Positions 3,560 to 49,608 of a stretch of 64,000 nucleotides of DNA are shown here, piece after piece (positions within the stretch are counted from its first letter, which is position 1; each line of letters opens with the position of its first letter). Both the position numbers and the translations under genes were made by a program. Source of the stretch: Candidatus Limnocylindria bacterium (GTDB lineage Bacteria > Chloroflexota > Limnocylindria > Limnocylindrales > CSP1-4). The stretch is from contig JBGPIH010000001.1 in assembly GCA_041484785.1 (NCBI GenBank), positions 7,258 to 71,257 on the forward strand, written 5' to 3'. Below the pieces are notes generated by a model. It searched no databases. It was not told where the DNA came from and saw only the letters and a program-made list of their open reading frames with translations.

Positions 3560-3823
3560 GCAACGCTTGACAACCGTGGCACGAGACGGACCGACGGGAG
3601 AGCATTCGCCAGCCGGCCGAGACGCCGATCTATCAGCCTGTTCTCAGCCGCCATTCATATCTCTCCGCCACCGTGTCGCGTGGAACGTCCACAGACGAGG
3701 CGGTCATCGCCAGGGCCTTGACCGAACGGCCGCAGTTGATCGAAACGCGGTCTGCGTCATATACTCCCTGGGAGTATTGAACCACCGACCAGAGAGCGCG
3801 CCACGAGCGGGAGATGGAACCTC

Positions 3824-4330
3824 ATGCTGGATCTTCAGTTGACCGCCGAGCCAGTCCAGGCCGACACGGTCAAGGCCGGCTACAGCTGCCCGTGCGGGTG
3901 TACCCCAGCGACCACCTATCGACGGGGGAGCGCGGCCGCGACAGAGGGCTGCTGCTGCGGGAACGAGTTCGCGGTCGGACCCGATGCGGAGAGCCACGTG
4001 CACGCTCCCACCGGGTTCCAAGTCCTGACTGACTCACTTATGGCTCCATGGGGCGACCGACTGCCGGTGGCATGGGCGATCGGGCCGTCGACTCACGATG
4101 AACCTGAGCACGCCGCAGTCGGGCACAGCCATCACGACCCCGAAGCGGGTGCGGGCACGACCACCGATCCCGTCTGCGGCATGACGATCGACCCCGAGGC
4201 GTCGCGATCAGACGGGCTACACAGTCGCCACCACGAGGCCGACTACTTCTTCTGCGGCAAGGGCTGCAAGCTCGAGTTCGACGAGGACCCCGCGCGGCAC
4301 CTCGACCCGTCCTACGTTCCATCGATGTGA
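3824..4330 (+). CDS. YHS/TRASH-domain metal-binding protein with Cys-rich and His-rich N-terminal region
   Basis: C-terminal DPVCGMTID...YFFCGKGCKLEFDEDP is a YHS signature. N-terminus YSCPCGCTP...GCCCGNEF and HSHHDPE look like metal-binding clusters. Lies directly upstream of the HMA/CopA genes. Confidence 0.8.
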   Translation: MLDLQLTAEPVQADTVKAGYSCPCGCTPATTYRRGSAAATEGCCCGNEFAVGPDAESHVHAPTGFQVLTDSLMAPWGDRLPVAWAIGPSTHDEPEHAAVGHSHHDPEAGAGTTTDPVCGMTIDPEASRSDGLHSRHHEADYFFCGKGCKLEFDEDPARHLDPSYVPSM

Positions 4331-4339
4331 GGCCACCCA

Positions 4340-4564
4340 ATGACCGCTGAGACGACGACGGCCGCCGGGGTCCGCTTCCCGGTGGAGGGCATGACCTGCG
4401 CCTCGTGCGTGAACCGCATCGAGGGGTACCTGCGCAAGACCGAAGGCGTCGTCGAGGCGAACGTCAACCTCGCGACGGAGACCGCATCAGTACGCTTCGA
4501 CCCGTCGGCCGTCGATCTCGACGGGCTGCGGGCTGCGGGCCGCGGTGGAGGCCGCGGGCTATGA
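4340..4564 (+). CDS. Heavy-metal-associated (HMA) domain, CopZ-like; probably first HMA repeat of CopA separated by a +1 frameshift
   Basis: [17 protein letters not shown]...VRFDP is an HMA fold with the MxCxxC motif. It is near-identical to the HMA domain inside the downstream ATPase. Its frame is lost at 4530..4545 by one extra base, or a 7-nt unit, in gggctgcgggctgcgggcc. Confidence 0.7.
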
Positions 4565-7022
4565 GGCGCGGATCGACCGGGCCGAGGTGACGGGTCCCAA
4601 CCGGCAGGCGGTCGAGATCGCCTTCCGGGCGCCCGAGGGCAGCCTTGCCGGGCCGCGGGCCTTCGCCCTCGACATCGAGGGCATGACCTGCGCCTCCTGC
4701 GTCAATCGGATCGAGCGGTACCTTCGCAAGGTGGACGGGGTCGCCAAGGCCAACGTCAACCTCGCCACGGAGCGTGCGACCGTCGTCGCGGGGCCCGAGG
4801 TGACCCTCGACCAGCTGATCGCCGCCGTCGAGGCGGCCGGCTACGAGGCCAGGCTGCTCGTCGATGCGGCGCCGGCGGTGGCGGCACCGGCCGCGCAGGC
4901 TACGACCGAGCCATTGGAGCCGCAGGCCGTCAGCCGCGAGGCTACCGCCGCGCCCGAGACGAGCTTCCAGCAGCGCCACCTCGCCGACACCCGGCGGCGG
5001 CTGATCGTGGCGGCCATCCTCACGACCCCGCTCCTGTTGGGTCTGGCGTCCATGACGATCGCGCCGTTCCTGCCGTCGTTCCTCACCAACCCATGGCTTC
5101 AGCTCGGCCTCGCGACCCCGGTCCAGTTCTACGCGGGCTGGCCGTTCTACAAGGGCGCCTGGAAGGTCGCCCGCCACCGGGCGACGGACATGAACACGCT
5201 CATCGCCGTCGGGACTTCCGCCGCGTACTTCTACAGCCTCGCCGCGATCCTCTTCCCGGGCTTCTTCCAGGCGGCGGGCGTCGCGACCGAGGGGCGCCTG
5301 CCGCTCTACTTCGACACGTCCTCGGCGATCGTGACGCTCATCCTGCTCGGCCGCTTCCTCGAGGCCCGAGCGCGGAGTCACACCTCTGACGCGATCAAGA
5401 AGCTCATAGGCCTCCAGCCGCGGACTGCGCGCGTCCTGCGCGCCGGGGGCGAGGTCGACATTCCCATCGAAGACGTTGTCCGGGGCGACATCGTGCTCGT
5501 CCGGCCGGGCGAGAAGGTCCCCGTCGACGGGATCGTCCAAGACGGTCGCTCGGCGGTCGACGAGAGCATGGTCACGGGTGAGCCGATCCCGGTGACGAAG
5601 GAGATGGGCGAGGAGGTCATCGGCGGGACCCTCAACACGCTCGGCAGCTTCCGCTTTGAGGCGACCCGTGTCGGGCGTGACACCGTCCTCGCGCAGATCG
5701 TTCGGCTCGTCCAGGAAGCCCAGGGTTCGAAGGCGCCGATCCAGCGCCTGGCCGATGCCGTGACCGGCTACTTCGTTCCGGCGGTCCTCGGCATGGCCGC
5801 CCTGACCTTTGTCGTCTGGTTTGTCCTGGGTCCCCAGCCGGCGTTCAACCTGGCGCTCCTCAACATGGTCGCCGTGCTCATCATTGCGTGCCCTTGTGCG
5901 CTCGGGCTGGCGACGCCGACCTCGATCATGGTCGGGACGGGCAAGGGCGCCGAGAACGGCGTCCTCTTCCGGAACGCCGAAGCCCTCGAGCGCCTGCACA
6001 AGGTCCGCGCCGTCGTGCTCGACAAGACCGGCACACTGACCGAGGGCAAGCCGCGCGTCACGGACGTCGTTCGTGCCGATGACGCGCCGGGAGAGGATGA
6101 GCTTGTCGCCCTCGTCGCCGCGGCCGAGCGTGGTTCGGAACATCCGCTGGGAGAGGCGATCGTCCGCTTCGCTCGCGACGAGCGGTCGCTCACCTTGGCC
6201 GATGTGACAGCGTTCGAGGCCGTGTCCGGCCAGGGGATCGCGGCGACCGTGGCCGGTCGTGCCGTCCTGGTCGGTCGTCCCGCGTATATGGACGGTCAGG
6301 GAATCGACCCGGGTCCCCTGCGCGGCGCTGCGGACGAGCTGGCCGCATCCGGCAAGACGCCCGTGTTCGTCGCGGTCGACGGCCGACTGGCCGCAGTCAT
6401 CGCGATCGCCGACACGCTCAAGGCCGGTTCGGTCGAGGCAGTCGCCGAGCTGCACCGCCTCGGGCTGGAGGTGGCCATGCTGACCGGCGACAACGAGACC
6501 ACGGCGCAGGCGATCGCCCGCCAGGCCGGCGTGGATCGGGTCCTGGCCGACGTGCGCCCCGACGAGAAGGCGGCCCAGATCAAGCGGCTCCAGGGCGAAG
6601 GCAAGCTCGTCGCGATGGTCGGTGACGGGATCAACGACGCGCCAGCTCTCGCGCAGGCCGACGTCGGAATCGCGATCGGGACCGGCACCGACGTGGCCAT
6701 CGAGTCGGGCTCGGTGACGCTCATGAGTGGTGACCTGCGGGCGCTTGTGACGGCGATCTCGCTGTCTCGGGCGACGATGGGCAACATCAAGCAGAACCTG
6801 TTCTGGGCGTTCGCCTATAACGTCGCCTTGATCCCGCTGGCAGCTGGGTTCTTCTATCCGTTCACGGGCATCCTGCTCGATCCCATCTTCGCAGCCGGGG
6901 CCATGGCGCTGTCGTCTGTGACCGTCGTGTCCAACGCGTTGCGTCTGCGTCGCTTCAGCCCGCCGGCTGCCGGTCGGTCGGCATCGCCTGGTCGCCCGAA
7001 GACCATCCCCGCGAGCGCCTGA
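4545..7022 (+). CDS. copA: Cu(I)-translocating P1B-type ATPase
   Basis: HMA domain (GMTCASC), TGE, CPC ([13 protein letters not shown]), [21 protein letters not shown] and MSxSS motifs. Confidence 0.9.
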
Positions 7023-10777: not shown

Positions 10778-11437
10778 TTGAGGGCTCGATTGGTTAGCCC
10801 TGTCACCGCAGCCGCGGTCGCTGGCGCCACGGTCAGCATCGCGCTGCTCGTTGCCCTTGTTCTGACATGGCCCGTTCCCGGTTCTTCGCCGGCCACACCA
10901 TCAGGCGCAGGCCTCCCCACCGAGACGCCGAGCGCTCGATCGATGCCAGCATCGTTCGCGGCCCAGTCGTCAGCTGTACTGCCCACTGTGCGGCCGTCAC
11001 CGGCCTCGATCGGCCTCAACGTAGGTGACCGCGCACCTGAATTCGAGTTGCCTGGCCTCGACGGCACGAGCCCCCGACTCTCCGACTATCGCGGCCACCC
11101 GGTCTGGATCAACTTCTGGGCGTCGTGGTGCCCGCCATGCCGGACCGAGATGCCGCGGATCGAGGGCCTCTACCTGGAGCACAAACAGGACGGCCTCGTC
11201 GTCCTGGGTGTCGCGGTCCATGACTCGGACGCGGCGATCCGCGCATTCGTCGCCGAGGTCGGCGCGACCTATCCGATCCTGCTCGATCCGGACGGTCGGG
11301 TCGCGGCCGCGTACGGGGCGGTCGCCCTCCCCGTCTCGTTCTGGCTCGATCGTGACGGCATCATCCGCGACTGGATCATCGGCGAGGCGCCGCCCGACAT
11401 CATGACGTCAGCCCTCGACAAGATCCTGTCGCGCTGA
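10778..11437 (+). CDS. TlpA-like thioredoxin-family protein (second paralog, divergent orientation)
   Basis: Signal anchor; WASWCPPCRTEMP motif. Confidence 0.75.
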   Translation: MRARLVSPVTAAAVAGATVSIALLVALVLTWPVPGSSPATPSGAGLPTETPSARSMPASFAAQSSAVLPTVRPSPASIGLNVGDRAPEFELPGLDGTSPRLSDYRGHPVWINFWASWCPPCRTEMPRIEGLYLEHKQDGLVVLGVAVHDSDAAIRAFVAEVGATYPILLDPDGRVAAAYGAVALPVSFWLDRDGIIRDWIIGEAPPDIMTSALDKILSR

Positions 11438-26787: not shown

Positions 26788-27467
26788 GTGAGGAAGGTAT
26801 GTGGCTGGGCCTGCGTCGCAGGGTGCCACAAGGCCCGGAAGAAGGGCCGTTCGGCAGGTCCTCATTGCGGCTGGGGCCTCCTGCGTGCTGGTTGCACTCC
26901 ACGCTCGGCCCATGCCGAGGCGTGCGTAGAAGCGGGCAGTAGCTTCGGACGCCGGTGACGACGAAGTCGAGGCCGAGCAGCGCGGCGGCGAACCAGGCCC
27001 AGGCCACGAAGCCTCCGGTCGTGAGCCACAGATTGAGGGCGAAGCAGCGCAACTGCGTGCGGGACGTCGTGGCGAGGCCGCGGCGTCGACAGATGCCAGG
27101 AGAAAAGAGTCTACCTTCGCGGCTGGCGCTTGCGATCCCAACCGATGATGAGGCCGGCACCAGTTGGAACTGGTGCACCAAGTCTCAGGCGCCGCTCACG
27201 CTGGGCTCAGCCTTCCGCTTCACGCTCGGGTGATGGACATCAGGCGCGGGCTTCAGATCCCCGTCTCCAGCCTGTGCGGTGGAGCACGGGCGACCACCAC
27301 CGAGCGCGAGCTGGCCGCGACCGACGGCGTGCTGTGCGGCTACGTATACCCGGCGACCGAGACGACTCACGTCGACTACGACCCGGCCGAGACCGACGCG
27401 TGGGTGCTCGCCCGGGTGAATCGAGCGGGCCGGGTATCAGATCGGCGCCCCCTCGAGGCCGTGATCC

Positions 27468-30749: not shown

Positions 30750-31265
30750 ATGCAGATCCGTGAGCTGGCTCGCCAGGCCGGCACGACGACGAAGGCCGTT
30801 CGGTTCTACGAATCCCAGGGGCTCATGGGCGCCCCCGAGCGCGCCGAGAATGGTTATCGCCGGTACGCCGCTGCGGACGTCGAGCGGCTCCGACTCCTGG
30901 TCGGCCTCCGCACATTGGATGTTCCCCTCGACCGGGCGGGGGAGTTGGCTGCCCTGCGTGCCGCCGGCCACTGTGAGCGAGTGTCGACCGAGCTGCGCGC
31001 GCTCATCGCTCGCCAGCGTGCGGACATCCGGCGCCACGCAGGGGAGCTCGACTTCCTGGACCGGCGTCTCGCGACCCTCGAACGGCATGTTGCGGCGGGC
31101 GATCCACCGCAGTCCGTGATCCCTCGTGGAAGGAGCATCGAAATCGCGACCTGTGATTGCTCGTGTGGGCAGTGCTGCGGATGTGACGCCTGCGGTTGTG
31201 TCTGTTCCTGCTCGAGCCACGGCAGGATGGCGGCGGGTGATCGCCATGAGCCGCGCAATGACTGA
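30750..31265 (+). CDS. MerR-family metal-responsive regulator with Cys-rich C-terminal tail
   Basis: HTH (MQIRELARQAGTTTKAVRFYESQGL), coiled-coil dimerisation region, then CDCSCGQCCGCDACGCVCSCSS. Confidence 0.85.
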   Translation: MQIRELARQAGTTTKAVRFYESQGLMGAPERAENGYRRYAAADVERLRLLVGLRTLDVPLDRAGELAALRAAGHCERVSTELRALIARQRADIRRHAGELDFLDRRLATLERHVAAGDPPQSVIPRGRSIEIATCDCSCGQCCGCDACGCVCSCSSHGRMAAGDRHEPRND

Positions 31266-35605: not shown

Positions 35606-36805
35606 GTGGACAACCGAGCAGCGCGACGAAAGGCAGCCGCCGCGGCGCGGCGCACGACGAATCGATCGGGGCGGGCGCCGGACGCGGCGACGAGGGCCAG
35701 CACCGGGCGCGGCGACGCGGGCGGGTTAACCACGAGTCCGCAATCCAATCCGTCCGAGGCTGTCGAACCGGAGGCGCTCGTCGTCAGCCACTGGTTCGAC
35801 TCCGGTGACGAAGGTGAATCGTACGCCGCGACCGTTCGGTTGACGGGACGCCGCGTCGACATCCACGGGCTGCCCGGGCCCCATGACACGTTCGTCCAGG
35901 AAGACAAGATCGAGGCGATCGTGCCCGGCAGCGGACCGGTGTCGCTTACCTCATGGGTCTACGGGCTCGAGCCAGGCGATTGGACCGTCGACGCGGAGCT
36001 GTTGCGGTCACATCGTGATCCGGGCCGAGGGAGGCGAACATCCGCCGAGCCGGTCCTTCCCGCGACCTGGTCGTGGCGCCGCTGGGCGCTTTCGACCGGC
36101 TCCTCGGAGGCGGTGAAGACACGCTGGGCGATGGTGGCGCCGTTGGCACGAATGCCCGGGGTCCTCCCCGGTAGCTGGCCAGCCCTTGGCGCCCTCGGGG
36201 CCGTCGTCGCTTTGATCACCCAGGCGGCGATTCTCGAGCACGAGAAGGCCGCTGTTGGCCAATCGCTCCTGGTGTCCCTGATCGCCCTCCTATCCGGGAT
36301 GCTCGGGGCGAAGCTCTGGTACGCGGTGCTGCACCCTGGCCCATGGCGACAGGCGATCCTCGGAGGCTGGGCCGTCGACGGGTTTCTGGTGGTGGCCCCC
36401 GTCGTAGCGGTCGCGGCACTGGTGGCCTGGAATCTGCCCGTCGGTGCCTTTCTCGACGCCGCGGCACCGGGCCTCTTCTTCGGGGTGGCGATCGGGCGCG
36501 TCGGGTGCTTCTTCACCGGCTGTTGCGCCGGTCACATCACCAATTCACGCTGGGGCATCTGGTCCTCCGATCGGAGGGTGGGAGCTCGTCGGGTTCCTGC
36601 CCAGCTTCTTGAATCCACCGCCGGATTGGTGATCGGAGGCCTGGCGGCGACGGCAGTCCTTGGCCACCTGCCACGTCCCGACGGCGCCGTATTCGTGGCT
36701 GCATTCGTGGCGTATCTCCTCGTCCGGCAGGCCCTCCTCCGGGTTCGAGCGGAATCGCGCCAGTTCTCGTGGCGTCGGAGCGTCGCGGTTGCCGAGCGGG
36801 CGTGA
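35606..36805 (+). CDS. Lgt-like (prolipoprotein diacylglyceryl transferase family) membrane protein with N-terminal soluble extension; start uncertain
   Basis: C-terminal ~230 aa with FFGVAIGRVGCFFTGCCAGH resemble the Lgt signature GR[IL]GNF[IL]N.E, but Asn/Asn/Glu are replaced by Cys/Thr/Cys. The N-terminal ~150 aa look like a folded domain rather than frame noise. Confidence 0.5.
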   Translation: MDNRAARRKAAAAARRTTNRSGRAPDAATRASTGRGDAGGLTTSPQSNPSEAVEPEALVVSHWFDSGDEGESYAATVRLTGRRVDIHGLPGPHDTFVQEDKIEAIVPGSGPVSLTSWVYGLEPGDWTVDAELLRSHRDPGRGRRTSAEPVLPATWSWRRWALSTGSSEAVKTRWAMVAPLARMPGVLPGSWPALGALGAVVALITQAAILEHEKAAVGQSLLVSLIALLSGMLGAKLWYAVLHPGPWRQAILGGWAVDGFLVVAPVVAVAALVAWNLPVGAFLDAAAPGLFFGVAIGRVGCFFTGCCAGHITNSRWGIWSSDRRVGARRVPAQLLESTAGLVIGGLAATAVLGHLPRPDGAVFVAAFVAYLLVRQALLRVRAESRQFSWRRSVAVAERA

Positions 36806-38289: not shown

Positions 38290-38967
38290 TCAGACGAGAG
38301 CCCGACCGCCTGCCTGGCTTCGGCGCAGACGCAGTGTCGTGGCAGCGATCACAAGGAGGCCGATTGCTACGCTCAGCCCGGCGAGGGTACCCGCGGCGAA
38401 CTCCCAGAACGCGGTCGGATAGAGCTGCACGATCCGCTGGGTGGTCGGGTCGAATTGCCAGCCGCCGGCCGGGAAGACGATCTCGTGGAATAGCGTGAAC
38501 AACGCATCGAAGGCGACAACGAGCCCGATCCCGACGGCCGAGAAGATGAGCACGAGCCCGGTCGCGCCCCGCCGGACCGCGCGGAGCGCATCCGGTCCGC
38601 TCATCCCCCGGGTCGTGATGATGACCGCGATCGCGCCCGCCAGCACAAGCCCGAAGAACCCATAGACAACGACACGGACGTCCTGCATGTGAGCCGCCTC
38701 GACCGGTCCGTAGAACGGCGGGCCTCCTGGTGTCGCGGCAAATGTGAACGAGCCTGGTCCAATGAGCAGCTCCTGGACAGACAGCTCAGAGGCTCGTTGG
38801 GCGACCTCGTGCGGCACGCCCAGGATGCCGGCTGAGCCCCCGATCTCGAGGCCGAGGTTCATCACTGGCGGAAGCAGCAGAATGACCGCGGCCGTGCCGA
38901 CGATGACGATTGCGGTGCCGACCCCGGCGATGGTACGCCAAGGTCGGCTGGAGTGGTTGGCAGCCAC
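38290..38967 (-). CDS. DUF1461-family integral membrane protein
   Basis: FTLFHEIVFPAGGWQFDPTTQRIVQLYP motif. Confidence 0.6.
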   Translation of the reverse strand: MAANHSSRPWRTIAGVGTAIVIVGTAAVILLLPPVMNLGLEIGGSAGILGVPHEVAQRASELSVQELLIGPGSFTFAATPGGPPFYGPVEAAHMQDVRVVVYGFFGLVLAGAIAVIITTRGMSGPDALRAVRRGATGLVLIFSAVGIGLVVAFDALFTLFHEIVFPAGGWQFDPTTQRIVQLYPTAFWEFAAGTLAGLSVAIGLLVIAATTLRLRRSQAGGRALV

Positions 38968-39026: not shown

Positions 39027-39212
39027 TCAGTGTCCAGCGTGCCCGCTGTGCTCGTCCTTCGGATGGCCGTAGCTGTGCGGGTCCTTGACGAACGTCTCGT
39101 GGCAGGCATTGCTACAGAAGTAGAACGTCCGCCCTTCGTGCTCTTCCGTGGCGGCGGCGTCCTCGGGGCGGATTTCCATGCCGCAGACCGGGTCCTTCAC
39201 CTTGTCAGCCAT
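39027..39212 (-). CDS. Small YHS/TRASH-domain protein with His-rich C-terminus
   Basis: GGAGG SD before ATG 39212. DPVCGMEIRPED...YFCSNACHETF, ending HPKDEHSGHAGH. The track ORF extends upstream to 39734 without a stop, but that stretch is Arg-rich low complexity. Confidence 0.8.
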   Translation of the reverse strand: MADKVKDPVCGMEIRPEDAAATEEHEGRTFYFCSNACHETFVKDPHSYGHPKDEHSGHAGH

Positions 39213-39720
39213 CTTGGCGACCTCCTTGTGGGATGAGTGGATCAGTCCGGTACGCCGACCAACGGCCGGCCTCCGGTTCCGTGCCGAATCCGTGCCACCA
39301 CGGCCTGAGCGGTGGAACGGCCGGGCCGTCTGCGCGAGGTCGGGGAGGAGCAGCTGTGCCACGTCGAGCGAGCCGTCCTCGAAGCCACGCCGGGCAGCGG
39401 CCATGTAGATCCGCCAGGTTCGGTTGTGGAAGCGAATGGCGGCAAGGTCGCGAGCCCGCGAATGGCGCCGTCCGGAGAGGCGGGCCCGGCGTCGAAGGTC
39501 ACGCGCCGGCCTCGAACCGCGGCGCAATTCGACACCGAGGCGGGCCAGCCGCGGCAGGTCCAGGCCGAGGCGTCGCAGCTTGAACGATCGGCCGGCGTCG
39601 ATGGCCGTCCAGATGTCACCCGCGGGGAAAGCTCGACCGACGAGCGCGAGAGATTCCTGGGCCATCGCCGCGCAACGCCCGACGCGGCCGAGCGGGGACG
39701 CCGATGCTGGCGCGAGAGCC

Positions 39721-42252
39721 TCACTCGGCGCCATAGCGGCGGATTCCTTCGAGCTTTGTGCGCTTCAGGAGCAGCGCGTTGACGGCTACCAGGAAGGAGC
39801 TGCCGGCCATGCTGATCGCCGCGATCTCCGGCCGGAGGACGAAGCCGAAGGCGGGGTAGAAGAGGCCCATCGCGATCGGGAAAGCGACCGAGTTGTAGCC
39901 CACCGCCCAGAAGAGGTTCTGGCGCATCTTGCGGACGGTCGCCCGGCTGAGCGCGATGGCGCCGAGCACGTCGATCGGGTCGCTCTTCATGAGGACGATG
40001 TCGGCAGTCTCCACGGCGACGGCGGTGCCGGCCCCGATCGCGATGCCGACGTCCGCCTGGGCGAGCGCCGGGGCGTCGTTGATCCCGTCACCAACCATGG
40101 CCACGAGCTTGCCGCTCGCCTGGATCTCCTTTACCTTGTCGGCCTTCTGGCCGGGCAGAACCTCGGCGAAGACGATGTCGAGTCCGAGCTCGGCGGCGAT
40201 CCGATCGGCGGTCGCCTGGTTGTCGCCGGTCAGCATCGCGACCTGGATGCCGAGGTTGTGCAGGCGCTCGATCGTTTCCTTCGCGCTCGGGCGGACCGCG
40301 TCGGCGATGGCGATCAGGCCGCCGGCCTCGCCGTCGACCGCGACTCGCACGACCGTGCGACCGGCGCCTTCCAGCTCATCCGCTCGGGACCCCAGCCTGC
40401 CGAAGTCAATGCCGCGGTCGCGCATGAGCTTGGCGTTCCCGACCAGGACCGAGCGGCCGTCGACCTTTGCCTCGAGCCCGTGGCCAGGGACGGCCTGGAA
40501 GTCGGTCGCGTCGACGAGCGTGAGCTTGCGCTCCTTCGCCGAGTCGACGACCGCCTGGGCGAGCGGATGCTCGCTGGAGCCCTCGGCCGACGCCGCCAGT
40601 CGAAGGACCTCATCCTCGCTGACCGGGTTTCCCGCGCCCACGAGCTCGACGACTCGCGGCTGTCCGACGGTCAGCGTGCCGGTCTTGTCGAAGATGACCG
40701 CGCCGATCTTGGACGCCTGCTCCAGGGCGGTTGCGTTCTTGAACAGGATCCCGTTGAGCGCGCCGAGACCGGTGCCCACCATGATCGCCGTCGGCGTGGC
40801 CAGGCCCAGGGCATCCGGGCAGGCGATGATCACGACCGTGATCGCGAGCGTGAGGGCGAAGATGAACGTCGACCCACCGATCGTCAGCCAACCGAAGAAG
40901 GTCACCAGGCCGAGGATCACGGCCGCGGCGACCAGCCACTGGGCGGCGCGGTCGGCGAGTCGCTGGGCCGGCGCCTTCGAGTTCTGGGCTAGCTGGACAA
41001 GCTGCACGATCTGGGCCAGCGCGGTATCGGCGCCGACCTTGGTCGCCTTGAACCGGAATGTCCCGGTTTTGTTGATCGACGCGCCGATGACGTTCGAACC
41101 GACCGTCTTCTCGACCGGCACGCTCTCCCCGGTGATCATCGATTCGTCGACGCTCGATTGGCCATCGACGATGACGCCATCGACCGGGACCTTGTCGCCG
41201 GGCTTGATCAGGACGATGTCGTCGATCACGACCTCTGCGGTCGCGATCTCAACGGGCTCGCCGTTGCGGATGACGGTGGCCTTCGGCGGCGTGAGGTCGA
41301 GGAGCGCCTTCATCGCATTTGATGCGCCCGCCCGGGCCCGCATCTCCAGCCAATGCCCGAACAGGACGAACGTGAGCAGGACGACCGCCGCCTCGTAGAA
41401 GACCTCGCCCTCGAACAGGAACGTCGCGGCGACGCTGAACAGGTAGCCGCTGCCGACCGACAGCGCGACGAGGACCGACATGTCGAGCGTCCGGTTGCGG
41501 AGCGCCCGATACGCGCCGACGAAGAACATCTTCCCGCTCCAGGCGACGGCGGGCGTGGCGAGCAGGAAGGCCAGGATGTCCTTGTCGATCCCGAACGGAG
41601 TGCCGAGGCGGATGCTGAAGACCTCGGTCGCGAGCGGCGAGTAGAGGAAGATCGGGACGGCCAGGATGAACGCCACGATGAAGCGGTTCCGCATGTCGCG
41701 GACCATTTCCTCCATCGTCATCCCGCCGCCATGCCCCATGCCGTGAGCCATCTGGGCCATCTCGCCCTGGACGGGTGCGCCCGCGGCCGCCGCTGCCATC
41801 GCGTGGCCGGCGTGCTCGTCATGGGCCGCAGGCGCCGCCTTCGCCGGAGCCGGAGCCGGAGCGGCCATCGTGTGGCCGGCGTGCGCATGATCGGCTGCGC
41901 CGGGCGTCTCCGCCTTCGCCGGGGCCGGGGCGGCCATCGCGTGGCCGGCGTGTTCGAGCGGCGGCGCGTGTGCGGCACCATGTGCAACCGTGCTGCCGAT
42001 GACGGCCGTCTGCTCGTCCTGGCAGAGATGGCACGGGACGACCTCGCCACCGCAGCGGCAACCGAAGCGCTCGATCAGCGCCCGGACGTCATCCGCGGAC
42101 AGTGCCGTCTCGTCGTAGTGGACGGTCACCGTCTGGGAGACAGGGTTGGCCTCCGCTTGCTCGACACCGCGCTGCCGCTGGAGGAATGCCTCGAGACCCG
42201 TGGCGCTGCTGGCCCGTAGGAGCCCTCCTGCTTCAAAGACTCTGCCCGTCAC
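39721..42252 (-). CDS. P1B-type heavy-metal ATPase (CopB-like) with His/Met-rich N-terminus and CPD transmembrane motif
   Basis: [25 protein letters not shown] and MAGSS motifs. TM6 reads [13 protein letters not shown]; the gat codon was verified on the reverse strand near 40800. N-terminal repeats [13 protein letters not shown] x3 plus a Met/His cluster. Confidence 0.9.
41800..41975 (-). repeat. Three imperfect ~60-bp tandem repeats encoding the His/Met-rich units ([15 protein letters not shown])
   Basis: Repeated ggccatcg(c/t)gtggccggcgtg units read in the sequence. Confidence 0.7.
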
Positions 42253-42525
42253 TGCCTGCTCCGTTCGTGTTGCGTGCGTATGATTGTCGCGCCACTACGG
42301 CGCTGTCGTACATAGAGTCTCATCGACATCGCCAGCGCGTCCGTGGCGGCTTGGTCGATCCTCGGCGTCGAGCCTGAGTCGTCGATGAGGTGAACCTGAG
42401 AAGGCGCAAGATCCACGCCACGTCGCCTTTCGTGACCTTTCTTAGCTTCGATTCAGCGGGGTCTCAGGTTCGGGCCTGACAGTCGGGATTGACGACGCGC
42501 CAGTGACAGAAGAAGAGGTTGATCG

Positions 42526-42729
42526 ATGACACGAACGATCCGGTTGGCCCTCGCCGCCGGCGCACTCTTGGCGCTGCTCATCGGGTCCAGCCCGGTCGCC
42601 GCGGCGGGTGACGGGGCCGCTTACGGCGCCTGCGTCGCCCATCATGCAACCACAGAGGGCGGCTTCAGTGGCGAGCACAATCCCGGGATGCACCTCGGCT
42701 TCTCGGGCTGGTCGGGCTGTCCTGACTGA
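42526..42729 (+). CDS. Small secreted protein (67 aa)
   Basis: GAAGAAGAGG before the ATG; signal peptide; GEHNPGMHLGFSGWSGC. Confidence 0.35.
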   Translation: MTRTIRLALAAGALLALLIGSSPVAAAGDGAAYGACVAHHATTEGGFSGEHNPGMHLGFSGWSGCPD

Positions 42730-42930
42730 CAACTCCATTCGCGTACCCACGGGCGGGCCAGTCACCACCTCCCTTCCGGTGATTGGACCGCTCCCTCCCT
42801 TTGTCCCCGGCACCCCCCGGCCGGGGGACAGGACGGCGGGGCCGGCTCAGCCGGCCCCGCCGTATTTCTTCGCCCAGGTGTTCCCATCGGGTCAGGACCT
42901 GGTTCTCGGACCTACTCAGGAGGGCAAGTC

Positions 42931-43497
42931 GTGGAACCGCTCCTATTGATCATCGCGGCAGCGATCGCCGCGGTCGTCCTCGTCTACGTCGTCCGCATGT
43001 ACAACGGGCTGGTGCAGCGCCGGCTCCGAACGGACGCTGCCTGGGCCCAGATCGACGTCCAGCTCAAGCGCCGGCATGACCTGGTCCCCAACCTCGTGGC
43101 CGCCGTCAAGGGCTACATGGGCTTTGAGCAGGCCGTCCTAACACAGGTCACCGAGGCGCGGGCGAATGCGGTCAGCGCCGGCGCCGCCAGCCCGGCGCAG
43201 GTCGCAGCGGCCGAGGGCGTCCTGACCACAGCCCTCCGATCGCTCTTCGCGGTCGTCGAGAACTACCCGGATCTCAAGGCCAGTCAGAACGTCAGCGCGC
43301 TGCAGGCCCAACTGGCCACGACCGAGAACCAGATCGGGGTCGCCCGTGACGGCTACAACGCGGCCGTGCGCGACTACGACACCGCGATCGCGACGTTTCC
43401 GACGCGGCTCATGGCCGGCTCAATGGGCTTCGCACGGCGGGAGTTCTTCGAGGCCGAGCCGGAGGCACGCGAGGTCCCGAGCGTTCAGCTGCGCTGA
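42931..43497 (+). CDS. LemA-family protein
   Basis: N-terminal TM plus the LemA conserved region (NLVAAVKGYMGFEQAVLTQVTEAR...VENYPDLKASQN). Confidence 0.8.
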   Translation: MEPLLLIIAAAIAAVVLVYVVRMYNGLVQRRLRTDAAWAQIDVQLKRRHDLVPNLVAAVKGYMGFEQAVLTQVTEARANAVSAGAASPAQVAAAEGVLTTALRSLFAVVENYPDLKASQNVSALQAQLATTENQIGVARDGYNAAVRDYDTAIATFPTRLMAGSMGFARREFFEAEPEAREVPSVQLR

Positions 43498-44447
43498 GCT
43501 CCATGCGTCGAGGTTGCCGGTCGGCCAGATTGAACGTCGACGAACTGACTCCGACGCGACCGTAGTAGATTGTGGCGACCATGACCGCGCACGGGCATCC
43601 GTCAGGGAATCAGCTGACCGGCGGTCCGACCCCTAAAGTCGTCGGCGGCAGTCAGTTGATTGTCGACCAGATCATCGTCCCCAACGCCTTCTGGTCAAGG
43701 AGCGCCGCGGTCACTGGCCGGAGCGGGCCATCGGGCCAACTGTTCCCGAGGACGTTTGACTCTTCTGGAGCCATCGTCGCACCGGAGCCCGAGCCGGTCC
43801 GACGCCGGTCGAGAAGGGAGTATTGACGGAGCTCGTCACGGGTGTCGCATGTCTGGCTTCGATCGACTCGGACCGTCCGCTCGACGACCGCCGGTGCCGG
43901 GCGGATCGTCCCTTCCGCGGTCCGCAGCGATGACGAGGACCGAAGACCGCCGGCCGCGGGTCGGCGCTCGGCGGCCATCGAGGAGCCATATCTCTGGCGG
44001 GATCTCCATGCGCCTCTGGAGCCGGACGTACAGCTCGTTGAGATACGCGACGCGCTCGTCGGCGCGACGGTACAGCTCGCCTCCCGCTGGAGCGCTTCGG
44101 CGTTGCGCGACTGCTTCGCGCAGCTGGGTCGCGAGGACCTGCAGGGCGTCAGAGAGCTGCGCAACTGGGTTTCGGGCGGGCAGCGTCACGGTCTGGGAGA
44201 GCGCGTGAGCCCGAGATCGGTCTCCTGGCTGAGTGCGATGGTCGAGCGCGACGTGTTGGCTGTTCATCCGGGTATTGCAGCGCCCGTCGCTGAGATGCCG
44301 ATGAGGCAGACCTGCAAATTGACTGAATGGCGATCCCGGGTCCGACGCGGCGCGGGACGGTCCATCTGGCCGAGGAACCGGCGGGCGTAGGGCGCTCGGG
44401 GCCCTCGACGTATCGCCGCTGCTCTTCCGTGTAGATCGTGTCGGACC

Positions 44448-44573
44448 CAAGCTACTCTTGCCCGACCCGGATAGCCCGGTGACGACCGCCAGCCGGTCAC
44501 GCGGGAACGCAACGTTGACGTTCTTGAGGTTGTGCTCGCGGGCTCCACGCACGACGAGCTGGTCCCGGGGCAC
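44448..44573 (-). pseudogene. uvrA: 5' remnant of uvrA (first ~42 codons only)
   Basis: [42 protein letters not shown] matches the UvrA N-terminus including Walker A. The frame then degenerates to Arg/Ser-rich noise. Confidence 0.55.
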
Positions 44574-44749
44574 GCGACCAGTTTAGTGAATGTGGGCCAA
44601 ACAGAACAGACGTTCGTCACACGCACCCAGGCCGCCCCCTTACACGGCCTACTACAGGGCCGTCGTTGACACTCCCCCAAGAAAAGCTAGGATGCGGCTT
44701 CCCGCGCTGGGACGACGAGGGTGCAGCCTATTGAGACAGGGGGTGGCAC

Positions 44750-45382
44750 GTGAGACGGCGACAGATCACCGCAGTCGCGGCCGGCAGCTTGATGGCGATA
44801 GCCTTCGCCAGCCCTGCCGCCGGGACCAACTTCGGGGGCCCGAGAGACTCGGGTGTGCATTGCGACACGGACCCCGTCACCAGCCAGTGCGTCGCCGAAA
44901 ACGCCTCGCACACCGTGTATATAGAAGCCAGTGTCGACTCCCAGCTGGTAGCACAGCTCCAGTGGTCAACAGCCAATTACACGGCCGTGACCGACGTGTC
45001 CATGGTCATCTCGACCTCGAGCAGCAGCGACGTAAAGGTGCGTGCTGTCAATTACGGCGCCAATGGGTGGTGGGCATCTACATCGTGCGAGTTTGCCGGA
45101 TCGCCAACCGTCTATGGCGGCTCGGAGACCCCCCTGCCCGGTACCAGATGGTGCAAGGCGCAGGTGCTCAGGTACAACCTCTACTACCGAGCTACCAAAT
45201 ACCCATCGGACAACAACGCGCGTTCGGTCACCTGTCAAGAACTCGGGCACACGATCGGCCTGCGCCACGCGACCTCTGGCACTGGCGACCCATTCTGGGC
45301 GGATTCGTGCATGAAAGTGAACAACCAGACAAAGATCACAACCACCGATCATGATCGGAGCCACGTCGATGCGCGCTATTGA
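44750..45382 (+). CDS. Secreted Cys-containing protein, snapalysin-like (M7 metzincin-like) with Gln at the first zinc-ligand position
   Basis: Signal peptide. QELGHTIGLRH...DSCMKV parallels the snapalysin HExxHxxGxxH plus Met-turn region. The region is lower in GC than its surroundings. Confidence 0.5.
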   Translation: MRRRQITAVAAGSLMAIAFASPAAGTNFGGPRDSGVHCDTDPVTSQCVAENASHTVYIEASVDSQLVAQLQWSTANYTAVTDVSMVISTSSSSDVKVRAVNYGANGWWASTSCEFAGSPTVYGGSETPLPGTRWCKAQVLRYNLYYRATKYPSDNNARSVTCQELGHTIGLRHATSGTGDPFWADSCMKVNNQTKITTTDHDRSHVDARY

Positions 45383-46142
45383 GCCTGTCCTGTTCAAGGC
45401 CACGCGTGTATCCGAGGCGATCGCGGCCATCGTGCTCACGCTGGCGGCCTGCACGAGCGCGGCGGGCGGAGCCACGCCTGGCGTTCGAACTCCTGCCCCA
45501 AAGGAGACGCCTAGCGCTCAGCCACCAGTGACCCCAAGCGCAATAGCGTCGGCGCCAGCGTCTACATTGAAAGATGCTGGCGCATTCTGGACCAGGATCG
45601 GCGGCGGCGAGAACGCCGAGACGTTCGACTCGCTGAGGTCGATGATGGGCGCATCGGATCTCGTCATGGTCGGCGTGGTGACGGAGTTCACGAGCGGCCG
45701 GCAGATTGCCTTTCCGGAGACCGGTGAGACCATGTACATGGCCGAAGTCCGGCTACGTGTAAGCGATACGATCCGTGGAAGTCTCAGGAGTCCTAACGAT
45801 GATTCTGGGTCGGTCGTCGTGGAGACCTCGTTCGGCTTCTCGCCCGATCCCTTACGCCTTTCGGCGATGGAGGCCAGCACGCCGGTCGGCAGCCGGGTCG
45901 TTCTGTTCCTGGCGAACAAGGCCGCCGACGCGGTGCGGCATGGATTCCCGCCTGATGCGCCATACGCAGGCGAGACGTACTACTTCCTCCTCAACGGTGT
46001 ACAGGCTGCCATCAGCGATGATGCAGGAATCGTCGCCATCAGTCCGGGAGCCGAGGACTGGCCATGGCTAGCCGGAATCAAGGGTCGAGCCTTCGACCGG
46101 GTCGTGCGAGACATCAAGGCCGCGGTCTCGGCGACGCCCTGA
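45351..46142 (+). CDS. Secreted lipoprotein-like protein; paralog of 1014..1733
   Basis: LAACTS lipobox; shared motifs with 1014..1733. Confidence 0.6.
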   Translation: MIGATSMRAIEPVLFKATRVSEAIAAIVLTLAACTSAAGGATPGVRTPAPKETPSAQPPVTPSAIASAPASTLKDAGAFWTRIGGGENAETFDSLRSMMGASDLVMVGVVTEFTSGRQIAFPETGETMYMAEVRLRVSDTIRGSLRSPNDDSGSVVVETSFGFSPDPLRLSAMEASTPVGSRVVLFLANKAADAVRHGFPPDAPYAGETYYFLLNGVQAAISDDAGIVAISPGAEDWPWLAGIKGRAFDRVVRDIKAAVSATP

Positions 46143-46933
46143 CCGGGCTGCCGTCTCGGCCGGTTTGCAGACCGATCGCCTGAGGCGAAATGCGTCGCGT
46201 CGGCGACGTGCAGCGCAGCGCATCGAGCGTCCGTATCCGGTCCGTGCAGCCCAGATCGACGGGCTGGTGCAGGCACGGACCGTCGACCGGAACTACGAAC
46301 AATCGCTCTCAGGCGGCCCGCGGTCGGCGTCGCAGGTCGGCTATCGCCCGCGCTCAAGGCGTGCTGGCAGAGACACAGATCCGCTTCGGTGCGGGCGACT
46401 GCCGATGCCGCAGCAGCAGGGAACGTCCGAGATCCTCCGGTCGGGTCAGGACATGGCGAGCGGAATCGCGGTTTGGAACGGTCGCGTCATCGCGGTGGGC
46501 GATGCCTGGGACGGCGGCACTGCGCCTGGTGAACCGGCCGTGTGGATCGGGCCGCGGCTCTTTGGTCGCGAGCTCGAGTCACGGCGAGCTGCCACCGATC
46601 GGCGAGCCCGCTTCTCATCTCCCTCTAATCCGACCGTGGCAGCATGTCGTCTGCATGAGCCAGCAACCGCCTCCGATCGTTACATCCAGGGCCCCACTGT
46701 GCCCGCTCTGACCGACCTCGAGCGCCGCATTCGCCACTCCCGCCCGTGTGGCGGGCCACGACCGGAGAAGCGCATGAGCGCCGCCTCCCGGGCCGTCGAT
46801 CGCACACAGGTTCAGCCGCTCGACCCGCGTCCGTCCTGCACGTGTCCGGAGCCCTGCGCCGCCTGACAGGTTTGGCGCCGGGCATATCACTCCGATCGCG
46901 ACGACGAGACACGTAGGAACGGAGCACCTCTCC

Positions 46934-47737
46934 ATGAACAGAGCCAGATTCGGCCTTTCTCTTGCTGCCATCGGACTTTGGGCGATCCCCGCTTTGGTCC
47001 GCAACGGCGCGGCGGCGCGCGCCTTCCGTACGATCGATCAGCGATCCGGGCTGTTCGCCCCGCGCGGTGCCCGACTCTATGCGCGGTTCGCACCGCGGAT
47101 TCTTGGCGGCCTGTACGACCACGTGGCTAGGGACGTCGCCTCCGTGGCCGCTCGCCACGACGAGCCGATCATCGTCGACCTGGGCTCCGGTCCGGGCGAG
47201 CTCGCGCTCACCATCGCCCAGCGGGTGCCAACTGCTCACGTCCTCGGCGTGGACCCGGCTGCGGCGATGCGGGAGCTTGCCGAGGCGCGAGCCGAAGCGT
47301 CGGGCCTCGTGAACGTGTCGTTCGTCGCAGGTCACGCTGGAGACGTCCCGCTCGCCGAGAGCACCGCTCACGTCGTCGTCTCGACGTTGTCGATGCACCA
47401 CTGGCCCGATCCGGCGAGCGCCTTCGCGGAGATCGCCCGCATTCTGCGACCAGACGGCGAGGCGCGCATCTTCGACGCCCGCTTCGCCGCGTACAGCGCC
47501 TCCGAGCTGCGGACGTTCGCAGCTCGCGTCGGCCTCGACCGCGCGGCGATCACGCGAGAGGTGCTGCCGGGCCGCGTCGTCCGCCCGTACGTGCTGGTGA
47601 CGCTGCGATTGTCCGGCTTCGAGCGGGAGGCTCAGAACCCTGCTGATTCATCGGTTCGCCCTCCCGCGACCCTGCTCCGGGACGTAGCGGCCCTGTCCGG
47701 GACCGCTCAGGCCGCGGCGCCGCGCGAAGGACGCTGA
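46934..47737 (+). CDS. Class I SAM-dependent methyltransferase (paralog of the ResB N-terminal domain)
   Basis: VDLGSGPGELALTIAQR...LGVDPAAAM...LRPDGEARIFD. N-terminal region TIDQRSGLFAPRGARLY is near-identical to 7852..10029. Confidence 0.8.
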   Translation: MNRARFGLSLAAIGLWAIPALVRNGAAARAFRTIDQRSGLFAPRGARLYARFAPRILGGLYDHVARDVASVAARHDEPIIVDLGSGPGELALTIAQRVPTAHVLGVDPAAAMRELAEARAEASGLVNVSFVAGHAGDVPLAESTAHVVVSTLSMHHWPDPASAFAEIARILRPDGEARIFDARFAAYSASELRTFAARVGLDRAAITREVLPGRVVRPYVLVTLRLSGFEREAQNPADSSVRPPATLLRDVAALSGTAQAAAPREGR

Positions 47738-47739
47738 CC

Positions 47740-48795
47740 ATGATCTCCACCGTCAGCGCGCCACCGCGGAGCGCCGCGCAACCGATGGACTACGCGGAGT
47801 CGATCGTCGATCTCGTGGGGCACACACCGCTGGTCCACCTGAGCCGGATCACGCGTGACCTCGGGCCGGTCGAGCGCCAGCCGCTCGTGCTCGCCAAGCT
47901 CGAGATGCTCAATCCGGGCGGCTCGGTCAAGGATCGGATCGGCCTGGCCATGATCGAGGCGGCGGAGCGGGATGGCTTGCTTTGCCCGGGCGGGACGATC
48001 GTCGAGCCCACGTCGGGTAACACGGGTCACGGCCTCGCGATCGCCGCCGCCCTCCGCGGCTACCGCTGCATCTTCGTCATGGCCGACAAGCAGTCGACCG
48101 AGAAGCAGGCGTTGCTCCGCGCGTACGGCGCCGAGGTCATCGTCTGCCCGAGCGACGTGCCACCCGAGTCTCCTGAGAGCTACTACTCCGTCGCGCGGCG
48201 CGTGACCCGCGACATTCCGGGGGCGTTTTCGCCGGGCCAGTACTGGAATCCGGCCAACCCCGCCGCACACGAAGCGACGACCGGACCGGAGATCTGGCGG
48301 CAGACCGCGGGGCGGGTCACGCATCTCGTGGCGAGCGCCGGAACCGGTGGGACGATCACTGGGACCGCCCATTTCCTGAAGGCGCACAAGCCCGACCTGG
48401 TCGTGGTCGGGGCCGATCCGGAGGGGAGCGTGCTGTCCGGCGACACGGCCCGGCCCTACCTGACCGAGGGCGTCGGCGAGGACTTCTTCCCGGCGACCTT
48501 CGATCCGGCCGTCGTCGATCGCTGGATCCGCGTCTCGGACCGCGACGCTTTCCGGATGGCACGCCGGATCACCCGCGAGGAGGGGATCCTTGCCGGCGAG
48601 TCGTGCGGCACCGCGACCGTCGCCGCACTGAACCTGGCGCGAGAGCTCACCGATGCTGGCACAGGTTCGGAGGCGGTCATCGTCGTCATCCTGCCCGACA
48701 GCGGGCGCAACTACCTTTCGAAGCTCTACGACGACGCGTGGCTGCGGCAGCGCGGGCTGCTCGAGACAAGCGGCGCGACGATCCAGGTCGGCTAA
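47740..48795 (+). CDS. cbs: Cystathionine beta-synthase / cysteine synthase family PLP domain
   Basis: GSVKDR lysine motif, TSGNTGHGLA, GTGGTITG, ILPDSGRNYLSKL. Ends at a TAA that is in frame with the following CBS-pair region. Confidence 0.85.
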   Translation: MISTVSAPPRSAAQPMDYAESIVDLVGHTPLVHLSRITRDLGPVERQPLVLAKLEMLNPGGSVKDRIGLAMIEAAERDGLLCPGGTIVEPTSGNTGHGLAIAAALRGYRCIFVMADKQSTEKQALLRAYGAEVIVCPSDVPPESPESYYSVARRVTRDIPGAFSPGQYWNPANPAAHEATTGPEIWRQTAGRVTHLVASAGTGGTITGTAHFLKAHKPDLVVVGADPEGSVLSGDTARPYLTEGVGEDFFPATFDPAVVDRWIRVSDRDAFRMARRITREEGILAGESCGTATVAALNLARELTDAGTGSEAVIVVILPDSGRNYLSKLYDDAWLRQRGLLETSGATIQVG

Positions 48796-48861
48796 CGGTC
48801 GCGCGATCGGCGCGACGACCCTGGGCGTGCGGAGCTCATCGTCGCGTGGACCACCGATCGA

Positions 48862-49200
48862 GTGGGCGAGGCCAGATCCACCTCGAGCGCTACGGCAACA
48901 GTCAGATCCCGGTCACTGAGGAGGGCCACAGGTCTCTCGGTCACGGCGATCGTCGGGGCCATCACGGACCGTGGCCTGCTCGATCGTGCCTACCGCGATC
49001 CGTCCGTCCTCGAGCGCACAGTAGGCGAGGCGATGGACCCACCGCTGCCGCACATCGACGCGTCTGCGACGCTCGACGAAGCGGTCGAGCTCCTCTCGAA
49101 CGGCGCACCGGCGCTCGTGGTTGTTCGCGACGGCTTGCCGGTGGGAGTCGTGGCGAAGCTCGACCTGCTCGAGTACCTTGCGTGCCGTCGCGGGACGTGA
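48862..49200 (+). CDS. CBS-pair regulatory domain (same frame as cbs, downstream of an in-frame TAA)
   Basis: TVGEAMDPPLPHIDASATLDEAVELLSNGAPALVVVRDGLPVGVVAKLDLLEYL is a CBS domain. The in-frame stretch 48796..48861 is colinear with a first CBS domain. Confidence 0.65.
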   Translation: MGEARSTSSATATVRSRSLRRATGLSVTAIVGAITDRGLLDRAYRDPSVLERTVGEAMDPPLPHIDASATLDEAVELLSNGAPALVVVRDGLPVGVVAKLDLLEYLACRRGT

Positions 49201-49245
49201 CGGTCGTGGCGCTCTCAGCTGGGTCGGCCGGCCCACGAGCTGCGC

Positions 49246-49608
49246 TCAGCCGGTGGTGAAGAGGCGGTACACGACCGCCCCGAGCACGACGAAGGCCACC
49301 AGCAAGAGGGTGCTGGGGCCGCGGCCGCGCATCCGCCCGAGGAACGAGCGGGCGAGAGGGATGAGCGCGATGGCGATCAGCGCATAGAGGATGTGGAGGC
49401 CGTCGGCCGGCCGCGAGCCGGCCACCAGCAGCATGAGCCCGCTGGCCGCCCCGACGATGACGAGGCTGACGACGGCGGCCTGAAACTGCTCGAACCTCGG
49501 GCCCCCGGTTCGTCCCGAGCGTGCGAGCGCGGCTGACCAGACCGCGCCGCCCGCGACGGCGGCGATGACGGCGTACGCGAGGAGCCGGTGGATTGTGTCC
49601 GTGATCAC
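49246..49608 (-). CDS. Hypothetical membrane protein
   Basis: Three hydrophobic helices; 120 aa. Confidence 0.45.
   Translation of the reverse strand: MITDTIHRLLAYAVIAAVAGGAVWSAALARSGRTGGPRFEQFQAAVVSLVIVGAASGLMLLVAGSRPADGLHILYALIAIALIPLARSFLGRMRGRGPSTLLLVAFVVLGAVVYRLFTTG

Follow-up and report, generated by a model that had tools for sequence, protein, structure and literature searches.

P1B ATPases are classified, and their metals predicted, by the CPx motif of the membrane domain, the textbook determinant for both purposes. To our knowledge, reviews name CPC, CPH, SPC and a few other forms, and CPD is not among them. A stretch of 64,000 nucleotides from contig JBGPIH010000001.1 of a Candidatus Limnocylindria bacterium (Chloroflexota), referred to here as the window, encodes on its minus strand (39721..42252) a P1B ATPase that carries CPD, and the question raised by this locus is whether the motif is genuine and which metal a pump with such a site would move. 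The comparisons described below argue, with moderate confidence, for a functional CPD-subtype P1B ATPase of the CopB-like lineage, most likely exporting copper, probably as Cu(I), alongside a CPC CopA also encoded in the window. This reading is based on the retained Cu(I) pathway through the membrane, on the copper sensors and copper proteins encoded near CPD pumps, and on the fact that CopB pumps are now assigned to Cu(I).

The ATPase and its membrane metal site

The open reading frame (ORF) at 39721..42252 (-) had been called a P1B ATPase in the initial annotation of the window, and this assignment was confirmed. The gene is intact, with a GTG start and a GGAG sequence 8 bases upstream of it, and encodes a protein of 843 amino acids that matched Pfam E1-E2_ATPase (8e-58) and Hydrolase (HAD; 1e-38). 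The protein scored 630 bits with the NCBIfam heavy-metal P1B model TIGR01525 (cut-off 346) and 608 bits with the copper-branch model TIGR01511 (cut-off 397), while the equivalog models of Zn/Cd/Pb pumps (ZntA/CadA, P1B-2) remained below their cut-offs (NF033775, 357 vs 1240; NF008262, 381 vs 1005). The P-type ATPase motifs are all intact (TGES, amino acids 374-377; DKTGT, 522-526; GDGINDAP, 721-728), and the P1B nucleotide-domain motif SEHPL is present at amino acids 560-564. The best matches among solved structures were AfCopA (3j09/7r0g; E 1e-170) and LpCopA (3rfu; E 3e-162).

The metal-site motif of the fourth transmembrane helix (TM4), C478-P479-D480, is encoded at 40813..40821 (-), where gcc tgc ccg gat gcc reads A-C-P-D-A. 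The GAT codon of D480 lies at 40813..40815, in agreement with the initial annotation, which had reported CPD, in a helix that it numbered TM6, with a gat codon on the reverse strand. D480 aligned with the second CPC cysteine of AfCopA and LpCopA (C384), and the helix break in the AlphaFold2 (AF2) model falls at residue 478, i.e. at C-P-D.

An aspartate at this position could reflect a sequencing or assembly error, or a decaying ATPase gene, and two observations would be compatible with that: the window comes from one assembly only, and a neighbouring gene of the CMAS methyltransferase family is degraded. Nevertheless, CPD was kept in 120 of the 120 closest database homologues (70-91% identity), the majority of them encoded in metagenome-assembled genomes of Candidatus Limnocylindria and further Chloroflexota. 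When a single genome of each species was scanned for sequences encoding CPDAL[G/A]LATP, at least 120 loci were recovered, from at least 120 species; all the listed matches lay in ORFs encoding the CPD motif, and 117 of them also encoded DKTGT. The aspartate was invariant in the 96 aligned CPD sequences (96/96) and its codon varied among CPD pumps (GAC in 71, GAT in 54), a synonymous variation which indicates that the amino acid, and not the codon, is held constant. The ATPase ORF is moreover full length, with every catalytic motif present. Error or decay is accordingly given practically no weight, and a sporadic sequencing variant among homologues carrying CPH, as envisaged beforehand, was ruled out by the conservation of CPD, rather than CPH or CPC, in both sets and by the codon variation.

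The rest of the membrane pathway corresponds to that of LpCopA. The entry site M258/E303/D434 is equivalent to LpCopA M148/E205/D337 and was kept in 98-100% of the CPD group, and exit-site E287, equivalent to LpCopA E189, is Glu in 98% of CPD pumps. In TM5, Y786-N787 (39892..39897, minus strand) match LpCopA Y688/N689 and were conserved at 98-100%, while in TM6 the stretch M815-A-G-S818-S819 (39796..39810, minus strand) contains the counterparts of LpCopA M717, S720 and S721. Residues M815, S818 and C478 (LpCopA M717, S720 and C382) were kept in 98-100% of the group, and S819 is Ser or Thr in 98%. The window pump has therefore the entry, exit and internal Cu(I) residues in common with CopA (P1B-1; LpCopA and AfCopA), together with an MxxSS-type TM6, and it departs from the canonical Cu(I) site solely by an Asp where the second Cys would be. 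The initial annotation had considered that other membrane ligands might be lacking; all residues of the LpCopA Cu(I) pathway were found to be present. In terms of class signatures, the ATPase has the YN(x)4P of TM5 and the M(x)2SS of TM6 that characterize P1B-1 without its CPC, and it shows CPD and MAGSS in place of the CPH and MSxST of CopB. Its TM5 and TM6 are of the YN and MxxSS type, and not of the P1B-2 type with a Lys in TM5 and an Asp in TM6. From this alignment we infer that Asp480, which is negatively charged as a thiolate also is, would act as the third metal ligand.

Distribution, relationships and N-terminus of CPD pumps

The initial annotation had set CPD apart from the CPC and CPH of copper P1B pumps. 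The motif is real, as described above, yet it is not peculiar to this genome and marks a large, cross-phylum and often plasmid-borne group. When a library clustered at 50% identity was searched, the top-scoring representatives were all CPD proteins (57%, 56% and 52% identity), and CPC and CPH proteins reached 49% at most. Among the matches listed, the hosts found in the genome scan cover at least 8 phyla, with Actinomycetota represented by Nocardia, Streptomyces, Mycolicibacterium, Microbacterium and Blastococcus, and Pseudomonadota by Ralstonia, Xanthobacter, Bradyrhizobium, Mesorhizobium, Brevundimonas and Thermomonas; further host groups were Chloroflexota, Patescibacteria, Gemmatimonadota, Bacteroidota, Deinococcota, Myxococcota, Armatimonadota and Dormibacterota. 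A gene at least 60% identical to the ATPase was carried by 67 plasmids, and CPD was confirmed on plasmids of Nitrobacter hamburgensis X14 (plasmid 2; locus L123), Rhodococcus pyridinivorans and Ralstonia pickettii. Automatic annotation labels such pumps merely as 'heavy metal' or 'Cu2+-exporting' ATPases.

In the searchable literature, the only mention of the motif that was found is that of Cubillas et al. 2017 (PMC5552934), who reported for three Rhizobiales pumps a 'novel CPD motif' together with MSGSS in TM8 and an extended N-terminus, and classed these pumps as a new P1B-3 subtype, group VIc (Nitrobacter hamburgensis X14, Xanthobacter autotrophicus Py2 and Bradyrhizobium sp.). Because of that report, the CPD kind is counted here as known; the three genes were among our plasmid matches and are 62% identical to the window pump over the core. 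The likeness to group VIc comprises CPD in TM4, YN(x)4P in TM5 and an MxGSS-type TM6, an N-terminus about 80 amino acids longer than that of CPH pumps, an HMA-like domain and the sequence MGHG…DMRNRF before transmembrane helix A (TM-A). The differences are MAGSS instead of MSGSS, a His/Met-rich N-terminus with tandem repeats (14 His, as against the 'few histidines' of PMC5552934), a CxCx6CHxC instead of a CxxHCx7HxC cluster, and a host from Chloroflexota (Limnocylindria) instead of Proteobacteria. The window pump is a member of this known but biochemically uncharacterised kind, well conserved and ordinary within its group.

The position of CPD pumps was analyzed in a neighbour-joining (NJ) tree of 49 CPD, 45 CPC and 11 CPH pumps and 1 further CPC sequence, with the CPx columns masked. 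The split between CPD plus CPH pumps and CPC pumps was supported by 100/100 bootstrap replicates, and the CPH group alone also by 100/100, whereas CPD as a single group received 13/100. The check on whether CPD homologues form a clade, proposed in the initial annotation, thus gave a firm grouping with CPH pumps and no well-supported clade of CPD pumps by themselves; one clean CPD clade is unsupported. A tree computed earlier with only 4 CPH pumps had suggested a pure clade comprising 95 of the 96 CPD sequences. The main CPD clade holds 40 of the 49 sequences, and the few other CPD lineages lie, on very short internal branches, at the base of the CPD plus CPH clade (Rubrobacter, Meiothermus and Catellatospora, then Chloroflexia, Dehalococcoidia, a candidate phyla radiation (CPR) bacterium and Bacteroidota). 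Read more speculatively, this basal branching may mean that CPH CopB pumps arose from a CPD ancestor, a rather doubtful proposal taken up again below.

Residues L440, A444, G448, P759, M776 and A790 are common to CPD and CPH pumps and absent from CPC pumps. By these alignments, CPD pumps look like a mosaic of CopB-like features (GYN in TM5, a His-rich N-terminus and MxxD(M/F)+x+F before the first helix) and CopA-like ones (an MxxSS-type TM6, mostly MSGSS and in the window protein MAGSS, and the retained exit-site Glu). The window pump forms one lineage (100/100) with CopB pumps (former P1B-3; CopB of A. fulgidus, E. hirae and S. thermophilus), with which it shares the signature residues, GYN, MxxD[F/M]+x+F before TM-A and a His-rich N-terminus. 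It differs from them in having Asp for His in the CPx motif, MxGSS for MSxST, and an additional domain of HMA fold at the N-terminus; the single CPH pump that was scanned lacked such a domain. It also keeps the exit Glu E287, and in the E287 column (window 41392..41394) the sampled CPH pumps had Trp (4/4 in that alignment). Unlike CopA, the window pump has CPD instead of CPC and an HMA domain without CxxC, and it lies on the opposite side of the 100% bootstrap split.

The initial annotation had described a vestigial ferredoxin-like fold without CxxC at the N-terminus, followed by a cysteine cluster, tandem repeats and a Met/His cluster, and these elements were recovered. The fold corresponds to an HMA domain at amino acids 1-64 (42061..42252, minus strand), identified from a sub-threshold Pfam HMA match of 21.5-23.7 bits (cut-off 24.8) and from structure prediction; the same region scored 32-52 bits in the pump proteins of Nitrobacter, Rhodococcus and Ralstonia. 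The AF2 model of amino acids 1-85 had a mean predicted local distance difference test (pLDDT) score of 80, a predicted template-modelling score (pTM) of 0.68 and a beta-alpha-beta-beta-alpha-beta topology. Compared with solved HMA domains by Foldseek, it matched an ATP7B metal-binding domain (6a71; template-modelling score 0.67/0.80, root-mean-square deviation 1.2 Å, probability 1.00) and also CopZ (6ff2). The GMxCxxC of P1B-1 HMA domains is missing, loop 1 of the fold being without CxxC, and among 84 CPD N-termini it was retained in 1 and lost in 83.

Directly after the fold, amino acids 65-77 (42022..42060, minus strand) form the Cys/His cluster, a CxCx6CHxC-type variant of CxxHC-x7-HxC. The latter pattern follows the HMA fold in 51 of the 84 CPD pumps (e.g. 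CGYHCAGxxVPxHxC) and was found in 0/136 CPC and 0/5 CPH representatives. Examples of such N-termini are those of L123 (6563..), L124 (6560..) and L125 (6560..). In the variant of the Limnocylindria lineage, C67 is invariant and C77 is conserved in at least 90%. This distribution makes CxxHC-x7-HxC a candidate relocated metal site on an HMA domain that lacks CxxC. The cluster is followed by a His/Ala/Pro-rich linker (41755..41961, minus strand), predicted to be disordered, with three HAGH[A/T]MAA units at amino acids 101, 124 and 147, a spacing of exactly 23 amino acids. The three units predicted earlier were therefore present, and the period is 69 bp and not about 60 bp (Tandem Repeats Finder, 2.3 copies, array 41795..41956). 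The number of units ranged from 0 to 5 among 120 close homologues, and the window protein has one more than the pump of an 86%-identical relative (locus L001); as copy number is naturally polymorphic, resequencing across the repeats is unnecessary. The Met/His motif MGHGxGM…DMRNRF (amino acids 163-191; 41680..41766, minus strand) lies just before TM-A, and its core MxxD[MIL][RK]x[RK]F occurs in 74/84 CPD pumps. In total, the N-terminus of 187 amino acids contains 14 His and 11 Met. Judged by these frequencies, the N-terminal features are hallmarks of the family and not quirks of the window protein. What the present analysis adds to the earlier report is the breadth of the CPD group, its placement basal to the CPH pumps, the exit Glu kept as in CopA, and the coordinated exchange of CxxC for CxxHC-x7-HxC.

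The transported metal

Neighbouring genes were tallied at the CPD loci of the genome scan (at least 120) from crude ORF calls in high-GC DNA, and several neighbour clusters that were antisense artefacts were disregarded. Copper genes prevailed: a second, canonical CPC CopA with a CxxC HMA domain at 13 or more loci, CsoR-type repressors at 11 or more, small CxxC HMA proteins (CopZ-like) at 10 or more and multicopper oxidases at 8 or more. ICMT/PEMT-like methyltransferases were found at 10 or more loci, DUF2933 and RND pumps at 6 or more each, and MerR and CMAS at 5 or more each, the last including Ralstonia and Limnocylindria. The pump of Ralstonia pickettii adjoins a copper-binding four-helix-bundle protein, CopC, CopRS and a cop multicopper oxidase. 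The window has a copper context of its own, which supports copper as the substrate: a CPC CopA at 4413..7022 (+) with GMTCASC, YN and MALSS and a YHS-domain ORF upstream (3740..4330), further YHS-like ORFs, an HMA protein at 27233..27460, and a MerR-family regulator with a Cys-rich tail at 30750..31238 (+) that is 73% identical over its full length to the MerR near the L001 pump. In addition, PMC7558416 and PMC10654040, citing Purohit 2018, re-assign CopB/P1B-3 pumps to Cu(I); the former P1B-3 class is now merged with the Cu(I) pumps, and an earlier assignment of CPH pumps to Cu(II) has been overturned (PMC7558416).

In the proposed transport cycle, the cytosolic N-terminus would collect the metal through the Cys/His cluster on the HMA fold without CxxC, the His-rich linker and MGHGxGM at the membrane face, and the small YHS protein encoded downstream may also hand over metal to the pump. 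The ion would enter by M258/E303/D434 and be bound at the unwound TM4 by the Cys478 thiolate and the Asp480 carboxylate, with Met815 and Tyr786/Asn787/Ser819, so that Asp480 would fill the role of the second Cys in CopA or of the His in CopB; its way out would then lead past Glu287 as the pump goes through phosphorylation at DKTGT.

Several points weigh against Cu(I) export. No assay of any CPD pump was found in the searchable literature. The full-length AF2 model had a mean pLDDT of 62, with TM3-4 and TM5-6 below 50, a quality in the membrane that is too poor for site geometry. A carboxylate is a harder ligand than a thiolate or imidazole and could shift selectivity to Cu(II) or another divalent ion, and a mixed Cys/His cluster at the N-terminus is typical also of Zn sites. 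In some relatives the pump has neighbours other than copper genes, namely VIT1 (L002), MFS, CMAS and ICMT methyltransferases and, in Rhodococcus, a MerB fragment. Part of this would suit the main alternative, a pump of the same fold and lineage in which Asp alters the substrate, so that Cu(II) or a different divalent metal (Zn, Co, Ni, Fe, Mn) is moved in place of Cu(I). The hard Asp ligand, the resemblance of CxxHC-x7-HxC to a Zn-type site and the loss of the canonical CxxC Cu(I) site from 83/84 CPD N-termini all point that way, as does the VIT1 (Fe/Mn) gene translationally adjacent to the L002 pump, and the frequent coexistence with a canonical Cu(I) CopA leaves space for a division of labour. 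We nevertheless regard a changed substrate as unlikely, given that TM5 and TM6 are of the Cu(I)-pump type (YN, MxxSS) and not of the Zn/Cd (TM5 Lys, TM6 Asp) or Co (SPC/HEGST) type, that the ZntA models fell far under their cut-offs (357 vs 1240), that Cu(I) sensors and copper proteins are the dominant neighbours, and that the sister CPH pumps, once assigned to Cu(II), no longer are (PMC7558416).

The purpose of copper export was considered separately. In close relatives the pump stands beside cytochrome b, COX1 and three cupredoxin genes, and the window encodes a cytochrome b (54040..) and a cupredoxin (63203..), which would fit a pump of the CopA2/CcoI or PacS kind that feeds copper to exported cuproproteins (cupredoxins, haem-copper oxidase) instead of serving detoxification. 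The two window genes lie 12-21 kb from the pump, the context in other phyla is of resistance type (CsoR, multicopper oxidase, CusA-like RND, plasmids), and the pump falls outside the CopA2/FixI group and with CopB-type pumps; a supply role thus appears quite improbable, and export of copper, probably Cu(I), by a CopB-like pump is retained as the preferred reading.

A bolder and rather doubtful proposal would see in CPD pumps not a minor variant of CopB but a large P1B subgroup that is functionally distinct, has a metal chemistry of its own and a selectivity or kinetics unlike those of CopA and CopB, and is perhaps ancestral to CPH pumps. Were it true, the group would combine a Cys/Asp/Met membrane site with CxxHC-x7-HxC in place of CxxC on the HMA domain, and could, for example, transport Cu(II) or both Cu and Zn, or release Cu(I) fast and with low affinity. 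The substrate of the Cys/Asp site, once measured, would be a test of the extent to which selectivity depends on the third CPx residue and would close a gap in the CopA/CopB classification as revised; the family is also a natural experiment, its HMA domain having exchanged CxxC for another kind of Cys/His site. For the window alone the result is modest, a conserved CPD member paired with a canonical CopA.

Genes around the ATPase

A 186-nt YHS-domain gene had been predicted about 500 bp downstream of the ATPase on the same strand, and it was verified at 39027..39212 (-), where a strong Shine-Dalgarno sequence, AAGGAGG, precedes a gene for a 61-amino-acid protein with a His-rich tail (Pfam PF04945, 4.7e-13, 49.4 bits, cut-off 30.3). 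With a YHS gene downstream of the ATPase also in L001, the protein is a candidate soluble copper-binding partner of the ATPase. A general partnership of YHS proteins with CPD pumps was rejected, as YHS was a neighbour at only 7/123 loci.

The intervening region, 39213..39720 (-), had been described as a stretch with no convincing ORF. It contains no intact gene, yet it is not empty: it holds the decayed remnant of a CMAS-family methyltransferase gene, recognized by homology to the intact gene of L001. The order in L001 is ATPase, CMAS methyltransferase (445 amino acids), a 239-amino-acid membrane protein, YHS, YHS and Lit. The remnant matched amino acids 94-158 of the L001 CMAS protein (blastx E 2e-27, 71% identity) and matched L001 by blastn as well. 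In it, the equivalent of amino acids 94-158 is fused to that of approximately 400-426, the S-adenosylmethionine (SAM) domain has been deleted, and the first 93 or so codons at the N-terminal end are missing. The region also keeps the last codons of the 239-amino-acid membrane-protein gene, and the window is without the second YHS gene of L001. Over 39213..39720, Rfam gave no match at E <= 0.1, and no sigma-70-like promoter or minus-strand terminator was found; a regulatory RNA or promoter in this 508-bp gap was dropped as an explanation, since the homology to the L001 CMAS gene accounts for it. A 235-amino-acid ORF at 39027..39734 is unlikely to be a true fusion, being the pseudogene remnant read through into YHS, which has its own Shine-Dalgarno sequence.

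Further downstream, a Lit-family (PF07314) membrane protein is encoded at 38290..38967 (-), in the same order as in L001. The gene of this lipoprotein intramolecular transacylase follows ATPase-YHS, and Lgt is encoded nearby at 35606..36805 (+); the corresponding Lit regions are at 11409..12074 in L001 and 1..711 in L002. The lit2-lgt2 operon of Listeria and Enterococcus is copper-induced (PMC8275575), and the Lit/Lgt arrangement of the window echoes it, here in Chloroflexota.

Genes without a link to metals recur beside CPD pumps across phyla (L123, L125, L011 and L001, among others), and the CMAS and ICMT/PEMT-like methyltransferases counted above belong to them. A DUF6629 gene and a translationally coupled MFS transporter stand beside the pumps of Nitrobacter and Ralstonia, and phosphoketolase was near CPD pumps at 9 or more loci. 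The 239-amino-acid protein of L001 was considered as a DUF6629 homologue and rejected, no similarity being found. The MerR of L001 has an unusual Cys-rich C-terminal tail (CDCPCGQCCGCSACACGCAC).

At the CopA locus of the window, the first HMA domain (4331..4564) is in another reading frame than the CopA body (4413..7022) and represents either a CopZ-like gene of its own, overlapping that of CopA, or a frameshift product. Divergent from the ATPase, a 67-amino-acid ORF at 42526..42729 (+) has a signal-peptide-like start and Cys/His residues, and no homologue of it was found in the loci compared; a terminator-like element, made up of a GC-rich hairpin of 14 bp and a T-rich tail, follows at 42833..42863. 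The sequence at 43836..44573 (-) has a UvrA-like N-terminus after which similarity is lost, with no Pfam match, and could be a piece of uvrA or a pseudogene with a frameshift. Finally, the ORF at 49246..49608 (-) is 56-64% identical to a 118-amino-acid membrane protein whose gene is the immediate upstream neighbour of the L001 and L002 pumps, and its distance of about 7 kb from the window pump points to a local rearrangement or insertion (42253..49245).

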